Counted from the first letter of the stretch, positions 5,474 to 60,208 are shown. The stretch: 64,000 nt of DNA from Clostridiales bacterium (GCA_918292005.1 CAKJZJ010000017.1:5051-69050), one strand, 5' to 3'. The notes: a model not told the origin generated them from the sequence alone. Made by a program: numbers and translations.

Positions 5474-8400
5474 TTATGGAGTGCTATTAAACTCGGCATT
5501 GTATTTAGCTAATATAGATCTGAATGGATTGTCGTATGTGTCTGGAGTAGTTACATTGTAATTCTCCGGAGTGGTACTATTAGCTTTATTTGTATAATGC
5601 GACTCCAGTGCATCTATATATTGCATGGTCTGGCTATTATTTATTTGTGTATCAGTGAGCTCTGGATGTGCCGTATGGATAGCATCTACTACATTGTCTC
5701 GTACTTCAGATAGAATCATCTTTGCCACCTTTCTAGTTGTAACTACTCCACAGATTAATTTTGCTTGGGTAGTGTCTAGATATACATCTAGTTCGGTTGC
5801 TTTTGCATCACTAATAATGTCGCTAGAAGTAGTTATACTATTGCTGAGACTCTCCATATCATCTTTTACAGTATTGAGTTCGGTAAATAATTCTACGTAT
5901 GTTTTGTAATTACCAGCAGTATTGTATGCACCTGTATTGATGGTGGTGGAGATATTATCTATTAGGTCGTTTGTAATCTCATCTTTGCTACCGGCTGCTG
6001 CACCAGATACTTTGAAATCTTCTACGAGAGATGCTACAGCATCTTTTAGTATTGTACGTGTAATGAATAGGCTATTTACTCTGTTATTATCTACTTCGTA
6101 TGCACTATAGCCACCCTCTAGATTGGTAGAAGAATATATTAGGTCATTATATCTGAGTGGGGTATTGTTTTGATCGAAAGTATTGAATGCTATTGCATCA
6201 ATATTGGTAGCAATAGTTGTGCTAGCATTGTCTAGGGAGTATTCTTGGTCTTTATTCATACTGGTTAGTTTGGTTACGAATGCCAATTCTTTTTCCCAAG
6301 AGAATACTTTATTCTGTGTAATAGCGATAGTATTAATACTATCCTGAATGTTATCAATTAGGTCATTAAATACTGTTTCGTAGGTATTGGTTGTGCTATT
6401 ATTTTTAGCCAAACCGAATGTGTCTTTGATGAGTGTATTGAGAATTGTTCTAGTCACTATCTTGCTATTATTATCGCTATATTGCATATATAGATGGTCG
6501 GAAGTCTCTATCGTATTGAATGCAATAGAGTCTATGGTGCTACCTATATCGGTACCTGTAGGGATATTGAAAATATCTTTAGATATATCTAGAGTGGTGA
6601 GTGTTGCAATATTGCCCAATTCGTAAGCAAATGAAGAAATCTCAATTGAAGTATTGGCAATATTATTTTTGATAGATGTTACTGCAGTTCCGATAATAGT
6701 TGACATTGTAGCATCAAATGAATCTACTATGTCTCCACTCATTTCTTCTATAGCAGTGGCTAATAAATCGCGTACTCTAGGCTCGGTAATAAGATATGAT
6801 CCACGGATGATATCTTCGCCATCGGTGTAGCCGTCTACTACTTTGTCTATCTCTACTCCAATAAATCTAATATTATCTGCTAGATTACTCGAAGTAGAAT
6901 TATCTAGGTCTAGAGATTTCAGTCTATTAATATGGTTCAATTCGGTTGCCCAGAAATTCACTCTAGAGTGTCCGTCTGGATTTGTTTCTGTTGCAAAGAA
7001 AGTAGGGTCTTCGATATCTGTAGCAATATTTTCGATTAATGTATTGATTTTACCATTAATACCAGTAGTATCGTTGGTTTTGATTTGTCTGATTACCGTA
7101 GCAATAATACCGTCTAGAGATGTGGCTGGTATAAGCCTACTAGTATATGCTTTGTCTATATCTTCTGCTATTGCTAGACAAGCAGATATATTGCTAATAT
7201 TTCCACTATCTTCGGATAGTTTTTGTAGAGATTTAAAGCAGGATATTTCTTTAGTCCAGAAATCATTATCGTCTTGCATAATGGTAGTGGTGTTTGCATC
7301 TTCTAGTGTATCTTTTATATCGGTAAATAGTGCATTTATTTTATCATTGAGTGTGTCGGTACCAGAGTCTTCGTAATTGGCGCCTAGTACCATTTCTTTT
7401 ACCTTGTCCATAGCGATATTGACTATTTTTAGTGTTGTATCACCACCTAATAGATTGGATTTTTTCGCTCTGTCTAGGTCTGATCCTAGGGAATTGGATA
7501 ATTCAAATTGACCATTATTACTAGAGTCTTGTAGCATATTATATACATTAGATATTAGTGGAGATACTTTGGATATCTCGTCAGTCCAGAAATCTTCGTC
7601 TGTTGTCGAATGTCCACACCTGATGATATTGTCCTGCATATCTTTAATAATGGATAGCATGTCTCTGAGTCCAGAGTCTGCTTTTTCAGATATTTGTTCG
7701 TGAGCATAGTTTAGAATAGTTGTAAGCAATTTTGTAACAGATGTGCTGGCATAAATGGTTTCTGTACTATCGTATATATTTGTATTACCACCGAATAATT
7801 GTGATGTTTCTAGTGCGTCCAAGAAAGCTCCAAAATTATTGATAATGGTCTCTGACATAGAGAATTCTATAGAATAACCAACTCTTTTATTGTAGCCTTC
7901 TTGAACTTTACCTAGTATTCCATTATCTTTATCACGTAAAATATTGAGTGCAGTATCTATTTTACCCATTTCAACGGCCCAGTCGGTAACATCACCGATA
8001 TTCTCTAGTAGAGAATTATTTACGTAATCTTTGAATACTTTTGGAATAGCATTAGGTGTTAATTGCTTTAGCTTTCTGGTAGTATATGAAATTACATTAT
8101 TGTAAGTTTCTGTATTAATAATTCCACCATCTTTTATGGTATTGAGTAATTGACCTAGTGGAACTAGGGATTCTTGAGTAAGGTAAATAGGGGAATCATT
8201 ACTAATAGTTTTTGCTGTGTCAAATGCTTCATTAATAATCTCTGTGAAACGATCAATGAAATCATCTTTTTCTATATCATTTTTTACATATCCGAAATGA
8301 ATAGAATTGTCTAATGCAGTGAGTCCAATATTGAATACATTGGCAATCGTAGTATTGACGAGTTTTAGTGATAAAATTCTCTCTACCAACTGATTGCTAA

Positions 8401-19262: not shown

Positions 19263-19379
19263 TTTTTCACCTAATATATTTATATTTCATGGCTTTTAAT
19301 TCATGCTTTATTTTATATAAATGATAAGAAAAAAATCATGGATTGTCAAATTTTTTGCTAGTGATAATAAAAAAGCAGG

Positions 19380-21214
19380 ATGGGTTATCAATTTTGAAAT
19401 TTGCAAAAAAGACTAAAAGTAAATTTAGTCTTCTTTTATATTTACAAATTTCCAGTGATAACCACCAGAGCTTTGAGATTTACCTTTACAACATACAGAT
19501 ATAGCACTACGGCTCACATTTATGGTTTGTGCCGCTTCCTTAATGCTATTATAAATAATGCCTGTATCTAAATTAACGACTTTTTTATAATGTGAAGATA
19601 TAGTTATTTGTCTTGCACACTTTGGACAGTTGCGACCTCTTACTCTACAACTAGGACTGGTTTGCCATTCGTAGCCACATTTCTTACATTTCCACCAGTA
19701 TTTTTTATTTGTTTGTGGTCTGATTTGATATGGTTTAATATCGCCATTTTTTTCATAATGCCATTCTTTTACAATTTTAGGAAACAATGTTTCTAAATCA
19801 TTATCGCCAGATAATACTTTTTGTCCAGCACAATATGGACAACCACATTTCATACTGCCTGCTCTTGATGAAACAGTTGCTTGCCACTCGTGTCCTTTTT
19901 TGCACTTCCACCATACTTTTTTATCACTACCTAGTGTAACATATTCAGGATTAACTTTGTTCCTATCATAATCCCATTCGTTTATTAAAATGTGGTTAGC
20001 GATACTATTTTCTTTTGATATTGTTAAAGCTTTATTTAGTATTTTCATATAATCATTTTCAATGTTTGGGGTTGAATTAAGGTTTGTATTAAAAGCTTTA
20101 TTAATAAAATCAAATGTTTGTTTAATAATTTCTTTAAGTTGTAAAATAGGGTTTTTATAAATATTTACATATACGAGATATGAATTTGTTTCATATTCAG
20201 GACAACCAATCTCACGAATACGCACTAGTTTTAAATTATTTTTAGCACATAGTTGATCTTTTTTAAAATCACGTTCTATATTTTTATGCCATTGCCTACC
20301 ATCATATTCTATACCTAAATTTAATTCTGGTATAAATATATCAATTTCCATTGTGTTTAACCAATCAAAATGTTTACTCTCTTCGATTTTAAAATATTTT
20401 GACAAGTAATATGATAATGTTTTTTCTCGAATAGAAGTTTTTAATTCATTTTTACAATATGGACATTCAGTTTTTAAACCAGCTCTTGATCCAATTGTTG
20501 CCAACCATTCATGACCTTTTTTACATTTCCACCAAATCTTTTTAGTCATTCCATGGCTAACCTCTTGTGGGGTTAATACATTTTTTTCATAATTCCACTC
20601 TTTTAACAATTCAGGATGTGTCGTTGCTAAGTCATTTACTCCCACAATGATTTTTTGACCTGAACATATTGGACAAACAATTCTACCTTCCGTCATGTGG
20701 CAAACTTTCGCTTGAAAAACATGTCTTTTATCTTTATCACAAATCCACCAAACTTTTTTGTTGCAATGTGGAAAAATTTCACTTGGTTTTTCTTTATTCA
20801 AATCATAATTCCATTTTCTTGCTATTTTTGGAAATAATGTTTGTAAATCATTTTTACCACTCACTAAGATTTTATTTGCACATGCCGGACAACCTTGTCC
20901 TTTATTTCTATTATTACAGATGCTTAACCATTCATAATTACAAATGTGGCATTTCCACCATGCTTTTTTATTACTACCAAGAGTTGTTTTGTCTGGAAAA
21001 ATACCAAGAGAATTATTTTTCTCCCAGTTCCATTCTTTCATTAACTCTTTGTTGTTTATTATATAATCTTTGATCATATGTGTATTATAACATAAAAATA
21101 ATAAAAAGTCTCGAATTGACCAAATTTTTGTGTTAAGAGAGAATTAAAAAACACCCTAACTTTTTCAAGTTAAAGTGTTAATTATTTGGCTAGTTTCAAA
21201 AGTCAGCAACTATA
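19380..21214. mobile_element. Cassette A: non-autonomous element with conserved ends, inserted in the degV terminator loop
   Basis: Both ends are shared with 40242-42339. Flanked by AAAAGCAGG (19371-19379) and CCTGCTTTT (21216-21224). Boundaries are uncertain by about 3 bp. Confidence 0.75.
19425..21077 (-). CDS. Zinc-ribbon repeat (DUF4379-like) protein with Vsr/DUF559-like nuclease and NUMOD1-like C-terminus
   Basis: Five WWxC...CPxC modules, central EIDIFIPELNLGIEYDGRQWH, and C-terminal YNSIKEAAQTINVSRSAISVCCKGKSQSSGGYHWKF. Confidence 0.8.
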   Translation of the reverse strand: MIKDYIINNKELMKEWNWEKNNSLGIFPDKTTLGSNKKAWWKCHICNYEWLSICNNRNKGQGCPACANKILVSGKNDLQTLFPKIARKWNYDLNKEKPSEIFPHCNKKVWWICDKDKRHVFQAKVCHMTEGRIVCPICSGQKIIVGVNDLATTHPELLKEWNYEKNVLTPQEVSHGMTKKIWWKCKKGHEWLATIGSRAGLKTECPYCKNELKTSIREKTLSYYLSKYFKIEESKHFDWLNTMEIDIFIPELNLGIEYDGRQWHKNIERDFKKDQLCAKNNLKLVRIREIGCPEYETNSYLVYVNIYKNPILQLKEIIKQTFDFINKAFNTNLNSTPNIENDYMKILNKALTISKENSIANHILINEWDYDRNKVNPEYVTLGSDKKVWWKCKKGHEWQATVSSRAGSMKCGCPYCAGQKVLSGDNDLETLFPKIVKEWHYEKNGDIKPYQIRPQTNKKYWWKCKKCGYEWQTSPSCRVRGRNCPKCARQITISSHYKKVVNLDTGIIYNSIKEAAQTINVSRSAISVCCKGKSQSSGGYHWKFVNIKED

Positions 21215-21222
21215 ACCTGCTT

Positions 21223-22059
21223 TTATTTATCAAGGAAAAGTACTCCTATACAATTCTCGCCACAATGGCTAGATATTGTGCCACCTGCTCTGGTAGGGTA
21301 GATGTGACCAAATCCACGATCTTTCAGTATCTCTGTGATGGCTGTTTCGGCTTCGGGCATGTCGGTCGAACTAGTGATAAATACATAGTCTAGTTCGGGA
21401 TCGGGGTGGGATACTAGCAAATCTTTGCAGTATTTGATGGCTACTTTGTTTATGTCGCCGGTGTATTTTTTACCTACACCCATTTTGCCATTAGCGACAA
21501 TGATTTGTGGTTTGATTCTTAGGATATTAGCACCCAACATTGCTAGAGCAGAACATCTGCCACCTTTGTATAGATAATTGAGTTTTTCTAGAACAAAACT
21601 TGCTTGGGTTTTTTCGGTCAGTTTGTTTATAGTGGCGACTATCTCTTCTGGAGACTTGCCGGCTTTTGCTAGCTCTGTGGCTTTGATGGCCTGTAGTGCA
21701 ATACCGGTAGATAGAGTTTTGCTATCTATTACATATACGTTACTCATCTCTTTAGCTATCATAACGGCATTATTGTATGCACTGCTCATTAGAGAACTGA
21801 GTGTAATGTGTATTATTGCATCGTAGTCCTTTTTTAAGTTTTCGAAATATTCCTTGTATTGCTCTGGACTGACGGCAGATGTCTTTGGTAATTTTTTGGT
21901 TTTAGATACGTACTCAAATATATCTTTTGATATACCAAATCTATCTTTTTCAATTTTGTCACCAAAAGTTATAGAGAATGGTGTGGTGGTTATGCCGAAT
22001 TTATCTAGTAATTCTTGTGGTAAATCGATTGTGCTTTCGGCAGATATTGCTATTTTCAT
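21223..22059 (-). CDS. DegV family fatty-acid-binding protein
   Basis: LPKTSAVS, SSLMSSAY, IDSKTLSTG, YLYKGGR and ISSHCG motifs. Confidence 0.9.
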   Translation of the reverse strand: MKIAISAESTIDLPQELLDKFGITTTPFSITFGDKIEKDRFGISKDIFEYVSKTKKLPKTSAVSPEQYKEYFENLKKDYDAIIHITLSSLMSSAYNNAVMIAKEMSNVYVIDSKTLSTGIALQAIKATELAKAGKSPEEIVATINKLTEKTQASFVLEKLNYLYKGGRCSALAMLGANILRIKPQIIVANGKMGVGKKYTGDINKVAIKYCKDLLVSHPDPELDYVFITSSTDMPEAETAITEILKDRGFGHIYPTRAGGTISSHCGENCIGVLFLDK

Positions 22060-39650: not shown

Positions 39651-40240
39651 TGGATATATCTATTCTAAATTGGATTAATAGTAATCTTCATGGTAGTGTG
39701 GTATTTAATTACCTATTTAAATATATTACATATACTGCCGAGTGGGGCGCAATATGGTTGCTCACGGCACTGGTTTTGCTATTCTTTAGACGAACTAGAC
39801 GTGGTGCAATTATTTTGTTTATTGCCTATGGTGGTGTGGCATGTGTAAATCTTGTGCTCAAACATTTTATAGATAGACCTAGACCATTTTTAGAGAATGC
39901 AGAATTTGTATCGTTTATCGAGTCTATCAATATGAAATTGCCCGATTCTTCTAGTTTCCCTAGTGGTCATACGGCTCTGTCATTTATGGCAGCGACTGTA
40001 CTTACTCTTACCTTTGGTAAATATGGCGCATGGTCATATATATGGGCTGTGCTTGTAGCATTCAGCAGGATATTCTTATGTGTGCATTATCCTACAGATG
40101 TGCTAGGTGGTGCAATGGTGGGGGTTATCGTTGCATTCGCCGTATTCTACATTTGCAAATGGATATTCCCTAAAATAGAAAAATGGTGGCAGGATAGACA
40201 TAAGGACAAGCCTAATGAAGACAAAAATAAAAGTGCATAA
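39650..40240 (+). CDS. PAP2 family phosphatase (undecaprenyl-PP phosphatase-like)
   Basis: K...RPRP, SFPSGH and SRIFLCVHYPTDV motifs. Confidence 0.88.
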   Translation: MDISILNWINSNLHGSVVFNYLFKYITYTAEWGAIWLLTALVLLFFRRTRRGAIILFIAYGGVACVNLVLKHFIDRPRPFLENAEFVSFIESINMKLPDSSSFPSGHTALSFMAATVLTLTFGKYGAWSYIWAVLVAFSRIFLCVHYPTDVLGGAMVGVIVAFAVFYICKWIFPKIEKWWQDRHKDKPNEDKNKSA

Positions 40241-40241
40241 G

Positions 40242-42339
40242 ATGGGCTATCAATTTTGAAACTTGCATAATATTGAAGGAATCTTATTCTAGAAGGTTCC
40301 TTTTTATAATTTTTTTAAAAAAATAACATTTTTATATTCGCTTATGTTATACTATTGTTGTAGTGTTATTGGAGTATAATTATGCCAAGTGGTAAAAAAA
40401 GAACAAATGAAGAGTTTTTGAATGAGTTTAATAGAAAAAATACAAATTCATCATCTATAAAAATATTAGGTCAATATTTGAATAATAACACAAATATTGC
40501 GTGTTTATGTTTGAAATGTGGAAACAAATGGAATCCCACTCCAAAAACATTATTAAGTAATCATGGTTGCCCTAAATGTGGGAATAATCAAAAATTTACA
40601 AAACTAGAATTTCTTAATCAATTTCATAAGAATAATTCGCATTCTGAAAATATAAATGTTATTGGTGAATATGGTGGTGTATCAAAAAAAATTAAATGTG
40701 AATGTAAAATATGTAAAAATATTTGGTATACTCGTGCTGGGGATTTGATTTATTCTAATTCAGGATGCCCAATTTGTTCTGGGAGTATTACACAAACACA
40801 TAATATTTTTTTAAAAAAAGTGGCATTTAAAAATATTCATTTTAATGATATCGAATTTAAAAGTCAATACACAGGTTCATTAAACAGAATAAAATGTCAA
40901 TGTAAAATTTGTGGACACGAATGGGAACCAATAGCAAGTAGTTTGTTGCAGGGTACAGGATGCCCTAAATGTGCACAAATCAAAACATCGCAAAAAGGAA
41001 AAGAAATTCTAAAAAAAGTCAGAGACAATAACCCGGCTGTAAAAAAAATGTCTCATAAAGATTTCATAGAGAAATTATATCTAAAAAATCCTTATGCCAA
41101 TAGTATAGAAATAATAAATGAATACAAAGGCGCAAATACTAGATTAAGATGTAAATGTAAGCGATGTAATAATATATGGGAGCCAATGGCTAGTGCATTA
41201 TTACAAGGACAATTTTGTCCTAGATGTCAACATTCATCAACGTCTTTTATGGAACAATTTATTGCACAAGGTTTAATTTATGTTTTAGGTAAAAAACATG
41301 TAATTCAAAGAGATAAAAAATTGATAAATAAAGAATTGGATATTTATATACCAAAATACCAATTAGCAATTGAACCCGGCTCATGGAAATGGCATAAAAA
41401 TATTCTACAAAAAGATATTGAAAAAATAAATTTATGCAAACAAAAAGGTGTTAAATTGATCATTCTCTATGATTCATGCCCTGAAGACAATATAAAAAAT
41501 GAAAACATTATATGTTTTAAAAATGATTTAGGTAGTGAAAAAAATCATAAGACATTAAAACAATTTTTAAAATCAATATTTACACAAAATAATATTATTG
41601 TTTCAGAGGATATGACTATGTGGAGTAATATTGAACAAAGAGCATATAAATTATCTCAAAGAATTACAAATCAAGAGTTTATTGAAAAATTTAAAATAAA
41701 TAATAATCACTATGCAAACATTATCATTAAATCTCAATATACTAGAGCAATAGATTCTATTGAATGTGAATGTAAAAATTGTGGAAATATTTGGAAAACA
41801 CCAGCATATGAGTTATTAAAAGGCAAGGGTTGTCCGAAATGTCAAATAAAACAGGTTGGATTAAAGAAGCAAAAAAGAAATATAATTAAGGAATGGCGAA
41901 GACAAAATCCTTATGGAAATAAATTACAATGTGAAAAAGAAACTGGAATAAGCAGAGTTACAATTTATAAATGGTGGAATGATTAAAAATAATTGGCATT
42001 TAAACGTGTGCTAGTCTTGATACAAGTCGTTGTCGCTTCGCTCCAACGAAGACAAGCACACAATAAATAAAATCGGTTAGAAGAAAGAGTGTGTGCTGGC
42101 GTTAGCATTAGCACAACACTCTTTCATTTTTCTCTTTGTTTTTTAGTGTAAACGAATATTCTTTGTTGTCAAGGTTAAAATGTATGTCTTGTAATTGTAA
42201 ATATTAAGATAACAACGACAACCTATGACAACGGCATAATATCCGTTTTGTTGGCTGGTTAAGAGAGAATAAAAAACACTCTAACTTTTTCAAGTTAAAG
42301 TGTTCATTATTTGGCTTGTTTCAAAAGTCAGTGACTATA
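40242..42339. mobile_element. Cassette B: same end family as cassette A, inserted in the PAP2-gene terminator loop
   Basis: Shared ends. Flanked by AAAAGTGCAT (40230-40239) and ATGCACTTTT (42339-42348). Boundaries are uncertain by about 3 bp. Confidence 0.75.
40382..41986 (+). CDS. Zinc-ribbon repeat protein with Vsr/DUF559-like nuclease and C-terminal HTH
   Basis: Five CxCxxC..W...GCPxC modules, central ELDIYIPKYQLAIEPGSWKWH, and C-terminal KETGISRVTIYKWW. Confidence 0.8.
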   Translation: MPSGKKRTNEEFLNEFNRKNTNSSSIKILGQYLNNNTNIACLCLKCGNKWNPTPKTLLSNHGCPKCGNNQKFTKLEFLNQFHKNNSHSENINVIGEYGGVSKKIKCECKICKNIWYTRAGDLIYSNSGCPICSGSITQTHNIFLKKVAFKNIHFNDIEFKSQYTGSLNRIKCQCKICGHEWEPIASSLLQGTGCPKCAQIKTSQKGKEILKKVRDNNPAVKKMSHKDFIEKLYLKNPYANSIEIINEYKGANTRLRCKCKRCNNIWEPMASALLQGQFCPRCQHSSTSFMEQFIAQGLIYVLGKKHVIQRDKKLINKELDIYIPKYQLAIEPGSWKWHKNILQKDIEKINLCKQKGVKLIILYDSCPEDNIKNENIICFKNDLGSEKNHKTLKQFLKSIFTQNNIIVSEDMTMWSNIEQRAYKLSQRITNQEFIEKFKINNNHYANIIIKSQYTRAIDSIECECKNCGNIWKTPAYELLKGKGCPKCQIKQVGLKKQKRNIIKEWRRQNPYGNKLQCEKETGISRVTIYKWWND

Positions 42340-42410
42340 TGCACTTTTTATATTTGAAAAACAAAAAACACCTTTATATATTAGAAGGTGTTTTTATTCG
42401 GCTACCTTGA

Positions 42411-60023: not shown

Positions 60024-60094
60024 TGTCATTCTGAAATGTATCAATCTGAAAATAGCAATTTTGGCTGTGTCATTCTGAACGAAGTGAAGAATCT
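60024..60094 (+). repeat. Tandem TGTC-tagged REP-like units
   Basis: 60024-60047 (degenerate) and 60068-60094 (TGTCATTCTGAACGAAGTGAAGAATCT), the same family as 503-574. Confidence 0.75.
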
Positions 60095-60208
60095 ACTTCA
60101 ATAAAATCTAAATTTATTTTAATAAATCCGTCATCACAAACGTACAAATTCGTTTTGTGAAAAGGATATAATATGCTAAACTACAAAGTAATAAGGCAGG
60201 TATGAATC

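Follow-up and report, generated by a model that had tools for sequence, protein, structure and literature searches.

A conserved hairpin in a recombinase-less cassette of a Clostridiales genome is probably the orphaned origin of a decayed integrative element

Within a 64,000-nucleotide (nt) stretch of a Clostridiales bacterium genome (GCA_918292005.1 CAKJZJ010000017.1:5051-69050; hereafter the window), two cassettes, A (19379-21233) and B (40241-42337), have in common a left end of ~30 nt and a right end of ~90 nt. Behind its single long open reading frame (ORF B), cassette B carries two long hairpins, H1 and H2. A sequence-only reading of the window had proposed that these hairpins form a 130-150-nt minus-strand RNA serving a nuclease encoded by ORF B. 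The anatomy on which that proposal was built is all present: hairpins at 42083-42125 and 42006-42061, their GTGTGCT/AGCACA arms, a GA-GC-GAA-GC-GA tip, and a minus-strand TTGACA-N16-TACACT motif, in a region that lies within the ends of cassette B and is absent from cassette A. Our results point elsewhere for its function. H1 and H2 are probably an orphaned origin hairpin and a terminator, left in the gene-less backbone of a decayed integrative element whose intact relatives encode a rolling-circle replication initiator (Rep). Both the link between the cassette spacers and rep genes and the interpretation of H1 as an origin are new. The features of this backbone are as follows.

41994-41998, plus strand: TGGCA box, the sharp left border of the conserved backbone unit
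42006-42061: H1, an imperfect conserved hairpin (folds, covariation, rep linkage)
42083-42144, plus strand: H2, a hairpin (42083-42125) with a T-rich tail to 42144
42145-42172, minus strand: promoter-like TTGACA (42172-42167)-N16-TACACT (42150-42145), in the left arm region of H3
42165-42232: H3, an imperfect inverted repeat with arms 42165-42174 and 42222-42232
42274-42305, minus strand: H4, an inward-facing terminator hairpin (terminator scan; alignment with compensatory changes)
42314-42337: right end of cassette B, with an inverted-repeat core at 42314-42328

One line of evidence comes from loci in which H1 is accompanied by genes. In both G005 and G008, H1 is followed on its own strand by a small ORF, a gene for a protein of 297-298 amino acids (aa) and, after an H3-like inverted repeat, a large serine recombinase gene. 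The 297-298-aa protein belongs to Pfam family PF23343 (REP_ORF2-G2P; E 2e-11, above the cut-off) and carries the HUH initiator motifs FxTFTY, HFHG and YxxKY, which do not vary among five divergent homologues. At least 581 loci with relatives of this Rep, mostly from uncultured gut Clostridia, were recovered from species-representative genomes. Linkage was counted in the 80 rep loci that were kept, representing many genera, using a covariance model of H1 (R1). The model detected H1 in 60 of these 80 loci, and in 59 of them it stood on the rep strand, 0.5-2.6 kb upstream of the gene. Scores ranged from 33 to 86 bits on the matched strand, compared to 20-31 bits on the opposite one. Many intact elements also have a conserved ORF of ~209 aa between H1 and rep (L091:3576-4205, L182:598-1227, L167:986-1615); it matches no Pfam family and may encode an accessory replication or mobilization protein.

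Two of these elements could be followed from end to end. L187, of ~10 kb, consists of a left end, a terminator, hsdR-hsdS-hsdM genes on the other strand, H1, rep, H3, the recombinase gene, a hairpin and a right end. The order is identical in L186 (7.6 kb), whose cargo genes encode a PD-(D/E)XK protein, a WYL protein and a DnaB-like protein. Their left junctions lay outside the 3-kb flanks first taken and were found with longer DNA. Both elements are bounded by the end motif of cassettes A and B, and their flanks are roughly complementary, like a split terminator, although less cleanly so than those of cassette B, where 40229-40239 and 42338-42349 are complementary and make up the stem of the terminator of the upstream PAP2 gene. 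In five further loci (L113, L114, L122, L146 and L147), the right-end core of the cassettes occurs ~1.8 kb after rep, behind the serine recombinase gene. The window copy of H3 is homologous to the inverted repeat in the rep-recombinase spacer of full-length elements. The backbone of cassette B can be read against them piece by piece, in an unchanged order and with both gene blocks missing: H1 and H2 correspond to the region upstream of rep, H3 to the rep-recombinase spacer, and H4 to the region downstream of the recombinase gene. The host genome, which is 96% complete, contains neither Rep nor a serine recombinase (PF00239). Five short contigs (L182, L138, L167, L173 and L174) start at or within H1 and have no terminal repeats that we could find; these starts are probably assembly breaks at a repeated hairpin.

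The same backbone behaves as a unit within the host genome. The segment running from TGGCA to just before the right-end hairpin (41994-42257) is a discrete repeat of 264 nt, present in cassette B and in a third cassette, C, but not in A. Cassette C, on contig 2, carries an A-like cargo that is 77% identical to that of A and lies on the strand opposite to ORF B; behind this cargo comes a 91% copy of everything from TGGCA through the right end. Compared to C, cassette A is missing exactly the 264 nt from TGGCA to just before the right-end hairpin, while B and C are 91% alike up to the TGGCA border and unrelated past it. Model R1 found only three copies of H1 in this genome, a palindrome at tRNA-Leu not being among them. 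The third, together with H2, is located on contig 16 (1206-1341, L003), directly behind tRNA-Ser(gct) and its terminator, and has its H2 loop in the reverse orientation compared to the other copies. The right end of the cassette, comprising H4 and the end core without H1-H3, occurs a fourth time, on the minus strand of contig 7 (84876-84960).

Across the genus, H1 is present in 50 copies distributed over 22 of 41 genomes, with 1-6 copies per genome, whereas Rep occurs in only 6 of the 41 and the recombinase family in 15. Most copies of H1 in the genus are therefore orphans. The full module (H1, H2, H3, H4 and end) recurs at ~70% identity beside unrelated cargo, including cytosine methylases, an ApaLI-like enzyme, an ABC ATPase, GNAT, MerR, a GDSL lipase and a CAAX protease, among others. 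A BLASTN search of the PAP2 gene DNA against the 40 other genomes of the genus returned no match, and the empty site was not recovered; since the adjoining housekeeping gene is undetectable in these genomes, conservation of the module is far above that of ordinary DNA. In column statistics from 86 distinct copies, TGGCA stands out as a sharp border of conservation, with nothing conserved upstream. H1-H2 had no BLAST match in plasmid and phage collections.

The structure of H1 is itself informative. An outer stem of 12 base pairs (bp; 42006-42017 with 42050-42061) is separated from an inner stem of 5 bp (42028-42032 with 42044-42048) by a conserved 10-nt bulge on the 5' side (42018-42027). The tip is a mini-stem of two pairs between T.C and C.T mismatches, which on the minus strand reads GA-GC-GAA-GC-GA. 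On that strand, the tip provides tandem G.A pairs and in most copies a GNA triloop, the more stable form of the two strands. Both H1 and H2 have the GTGTGCT/AGCACA arms in the window copy. The 161-nt stretch that holds them folds to -50.7 kcal/mol on the plus strand and -50.8 on the minus strand, compared to shuffle means of -32.8 and -29.1 (z of -5.2 and -5.7; none of 200 shuffles was as good). Folded as DNA, each hairpin alone gives z values between -3.7 and -6.2.

The sequence-only reading had named covariation among homologous cassettes and an Rfam search as checks on its RNA. Covariation is indeed present. Among 26 copies of H1 from the genus, 93.9% of the cells are paired and five pairs show double changes, a result reached by none of 500 shuffles; yet the pairing is of a DNA type. 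In 42 distinct rep-linked copies from many genera, 724 of 742 cells are Watson-Crick pairs, one is G.T and four are A.C, and single pairs switch freely (for example, TA 17, CG 13 and GC 11). The genus copies contain 10 G.T and 16 A.C cells, without strand bias. A transcribed structure is expected to tolerate G.U pairs on its own strand. Wobble pairs are avoided almost completely on both strands, as expected of a DNA hairpin or cruciform, and this points to H1 being a DNA hairpin rather than an RNA. Neither a -35 nor a -10 element is conserved on the plus strand upstream of TGGCA in the 86 copies, and this lack of any conserved sequence before the box argues against a plus-strand RNA gene. Reading TGGCA as part of a sigma-54 promoter was rejected by eye, the GC element not being at the required spacing. 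The Rfam search gave no relevant match: at gathering thresholds the only hit in the window was a tRNA elsewhere, and the best hit by E-value reached 26 bits against a cut-off of 54 and lay outside the hairpins.

H2 resembles a transcription terminator. On the plus strand a T-rich run extends from its stem (42084-42124) to 42144, and it would be predicted to end the ORF B transcript in cassette B; it was missed by the terminator scan, its loop being longer than 8 nt. Other species have a different sequence here but retain a hairpin and T run, and in relatives H2 lies between an A run and a T run, which makes it look like a bidirectional terminator. Intact elements have a longer nested hairpin of 80-130 nt in its place after H1, with a semi-conserved tip, GCAGGCT..ATCGC (L187, reverse strand, ~6600-6680; also L159, L146 and L136). 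These nested hairpins are candidate single-strand origins. Two short reading frames in this region, a 43-aa minus-strand frame (41983-42114) and a 16-aa frame inside H2, were rejected as genes on account of insertions and deletions between copies and the lack of a start codon in the other H2 lineage.

Together, these observations suggest the following model. The segment 41994-42257 would represent the backbone spacers of an element that has lost rep and the recombinase gene. Intact relatives are organized as left end, cargo, H1, long hairpin, small ORF, HUH Rep, H3, large serine recombinase, hairpin and right end, and are located in loops of host terminators. H1 would serve as a cis-acting DNA hairpin, either a double-strand origin or an origin of transfer, which Rep would bind and nick, in the conserved bulge (CTTGATA/ATACAAGT) or beside the TGGCA box. 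Given that its genome contains no Rep, the orphan H1 studied here could work only in trans. H2 would end the ORF B transcript in cassette B and, in intact elements, may also be a lagging-strand origin. The TTGACA-N16-TACACT motif is the conserved block that follows the rep stop codon, made to face H2 by the deletion. Of this model, the anatomy, the conservation, the linkage to rep and the shared ends are observed, and nicking, origin function and any mobilization in trans are inferred.

Two sites, one in the bulge of H1 and one beside the hairpin, are candidates for nicking. The heptamer CTTGATA is found at 42016-42022, at the bulge of the window copy, and in many other copies. It is the nick consensus of Rep_1-type initiators and origins (PMC10378824) and is present in the origin of pC194 (PMC7072734). 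As a sign of a nick site this exact match is only suggestive, and both the site and the strand cut in H1 are inferences from sequence. The second candidate is the TGGCA border. A hairpin, ~10 nt, a conserved box and then a loss of conservation make up the classical layout of an origin of transfer, and H1 read on the minus strand shows this order: hairpin, ~10 nt, conserved TGGCA box, and then no further conservation.

Several observations weigh against an origin function for H1. The CTTG of the heptamer is not kept family-wide, only (T)ATACAAGT and the TGGCA box being conserved across genera; part of the agreement with the pC194 consensus may therefore be chance. The Pfam family of Rep differs from Rep_1, and searches with Rep, as a single sequence and as a profile, against PHROGs and PDB produced no relative. 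A few loci have H1 after rep and in the opposite orientation (for example, L169). The outer stem of the window H1 contains one A.A mismatch, and the cassette B copy may simply be decaying. H1 with a terminator in front of an operon could also be taken for a leader RNA, and the promoter-like block, which is conserved beyond its two hexamers, might give rise to an RNA.

This last point leads to the best-surviving alternative, a short RNA of ~55-80 nt that would run from the minus-strand promoter to H2, consisting of a purine-rich leader and a terminator hairpin without H1, and would be antisense to the 3' end of rep in intact elements. We consider it unlikely. The promoter-like block is retained as TTGAC(A/T)-N16-TAnnnT in all 17 aligned modules and, in at least 29 of the 80 rep loci, directly follows the rep stop codon. 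In deletion-derived modules from several species, both this block and the adjoining purine-rich stretch (pyrimidine-rich on the plus strand) are conserved, and the A run and T run on the two sides of H2 would suit such a transcript. However, the spacer of the motif is conserved as well, and its -35 hexamer falls within the H3 inverted repeat; a conserved spacer fits a protein-binding site or a DNA element equally well. The -10 variants TACGCT and TACCAT are weak, and the pyrimidine run could equally be the U tail of a plus-strand terminator. Promoter-like hits in the region number 36, compared to 26.3 +/- 5.5 expected, so the class is not clearly enriched and the motif draws its weight from conservation in related loci only. 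The minus-strand promoter of the sequence-only reading is thus conserved as a motif and may support some transcription, but its conservation extends through the spacer and its class does not stand out from expectation. A cargo promoter in L032 (~1479, reverse strand) reuses the TTTAACCTTGACA -35 region of the H3 block, followed by a consensus TATAAT; the TTTAACCTTGACA -35 context may be a general strong promoter form in the genus.

The 130-150-nt RNA originally proposed, in which transcription from the same promoter would pass through H2 and then H1 to produce an antisense RNA, antitoxin, guide or scaffold acting on the ORF B mRNA or protein, is now improbable. The positions of its -35 and -10 elements and their 16-nt spacing are kept in all aligned modules and in intact elements, the region folds well on the minus strand, and the tandem G.A pairs and GNA loop of the H1 tip form on that strand only. 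Against this, the unit occurs with unrelated cargo in both orientations and also alone, and, since it lies outside ORF B, it lacks antisense complementarity to the ORF B mRNA. The order is also unfavorable: H2, which in relatives resembles a bidirectional terminator, comes before H1, and no T run directly follows H1 on the minus strand. H1 is associated with rep in 59 of 80 loci, wobble pairs are almost absent, and Rfam offers no match. In intact elements, moreover, the promoter aims at the 3' end of rep rather than at the cargo.

About as improbable is a plus-strand leader or attenuator RNA, in which H1 and H2 would regulate the operon of small ORF, rep and recombinase gene and would survive in cassette B as a relic in the 3' untranslated region of ORF B. 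The location of H1 upstream of rep and on its strand in 59 of 80 loci, with a terminator-like hairpin next to it, is what such a leader would show. Yet there is neither a promoter nor any other conserved sequence upstream of TGGCA, the pairing is strictly Watson-Crick (one G.T in 742 cells), some elements have an inverted H1 after rep, and the bulge carries an origin-type motif.

Hardly credible is the remaining alternative, that H1 is a repetitive extragenic palindrome (REP)-like or IS200/IS605-type sequence spread by a Y1 transposase and unconnected to the cassette backbone: H1 is repeated, imperfect and present in 1-6 copies per genome, but the Y1 transposase (PF01797) is absent from this genome and H1 copies go with rep loci and with a single fixed position in the backbone. 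The nested REP-like insertion that the sequence-only reading had listed as an option nevertheless comes close, in that H1-H3 forms a separate unit of 264 nt repeated in cassettes B and C but not A.

If H1 is an orphaned origin, the cassettes without rep and recombinase might themselves be a successful non-autonomous form. Rep and recombinase would be provided in trans by intact elements that arrive in the cell; Rep would then engage the orphan H1, and initiation or termination at the nick would exchange cargo precisely at TGGCA. The outcome would be an integron-like exchange of defense and accessory genes that relies on a rolling-circle origin and on integration into terminator loops. We regard this extension as possible but doubtful.

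The arrangement recalls several known systems without coinciding with any. As in origins of the pC194/pUB110 plasmid type and of phiX174, the gene for an HUH initiator has a hairpin-forming origin nearby, and the window H1 presents CTTGATA in an unpaired stretch. The phiX174 protein A has a two-tyrosine motif like the YxxKY of Rep. Unlike the pC194/pUB110 type, Rep belongs to PF23343 and not Rep_1, only ATACAAGT is kept, and the element is integrated by a serine recombinase rather than being a free plasmid. Elements of the Tn4451/Tn4453 type in Clostridia are likewise small, encode the large serine recombinase TnpX and are mobilizable in trans; they differ in having a Mob/Pre relaxase and an RS_A site instead of an HUH Rep with an H1-type hairpin, and in using other target sites.

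In integrative and mobilizable elements (IMEs) of Firmicutes, a recombinase of the serine or tyrosine type is often found together with a cis-acting origin and a relaxase akin to rolling-circle initiators; decayed derivatives of IMEs, cis-mobilizable elements (CIMEs), keep the att ends and lose genes (PMC5704250, PMC5357655; for IMESag-rpsI, PMC5090054). Cassette B fits the description of a CIME, having ends in common with recombinase-bearing elements and having lost genes. It differs from the CIMEs described in that it also keeps an origin region; no coupling protein was seen, and its ability to be transferred is a prediction. The Rep family, the H1 hairpin and the terminator-loop target were not found in the IME literature cited here. 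Single-strand origins of the ssoA type are long imperfect hairpins beside the double-strand origin. Their tip carries the conserved CS-6 sequence TAGCGA/T (PMC10378824), and the minus-strand tip of H1 reads AGCGA twice. The match to CS-6 is incomplete and falls on the strand that does not carry CTTGATA, and H2 and the long hairpins of intact elements are better candidates by position.

These results remove a false small-RNA candidate, and they indicate that strict Watson-Crick covariation with hardly any wobble, when combined with rep linkage, is the mark of a DNA hairpin. They also connect recombinase-less cassettes with a family of small integrative elements that is widespread in gut Clostridia, with at least 581 rep loci. 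Its members have a rolling-circle initiator and a large serine recombinase, insert into terminator loops, and carry restriction-modification and other accessory genes. If orphan origins do work in trans, this would help explain how such genes move among very small gut genomes.

The remainder of cassette B comprises its left end, its cargo and the host DNA at its borders.

40229-40239: 5' half of the split terminator stem of the upstream PAP2 gene, directly before the left end
40241-40270: left end of cassette B, with an inverted-repeat core at 40251-40266; ~30 nt, common to cassette A
40275-40303, plus strand: inward-facing terminator-like hairpin at the left end (terminator scan)
40382-41986, plus strand: cargo ORF B, 534 aa; treble-clef zinc-finger (DUF4379) and CapR-homology repeats by Pfam
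42338-42349: 3' half of the split PAP2 terminator, directly after the right end

The two ends of the cassette are imperfect inverted repeats of each other with a common core of 15 nt. The hairpin at 40275-40303 probably replaces the PAP2 terminator that the insertion split, and the full-length element L187 has an analogous hairpin inside its left end. At the other end, the C.A mismatch in the plus strand of H4 corresponds to a G.U pair on the minus strand.

The stop codon of ORF B lies 8 nt before the TGGCA box. Its repeats suggest a DNA-binding architecture like that of homing endonucleases. The label of nuclease given to this cargo by the sequence-only reading is unproven: a Pfam search recognized no catalytic nuclease domain in ORF B, and the match to PHROG 559 ('HNH endonuclease') is confined to positions 120-323 of the 607 in that profile. 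In cassette A, ORF A contains four direct repeats of 31 nt (window 19677-20970), which are coding repeats of its five DUF4379 zinc-finger units. A further repeat of 34 nt, beginning TGTCATTCTGA and unrelated to the cassette, is present in the window in three copies, two of them in tandem (503-581) and one 59.5 kb away (60068-60101).

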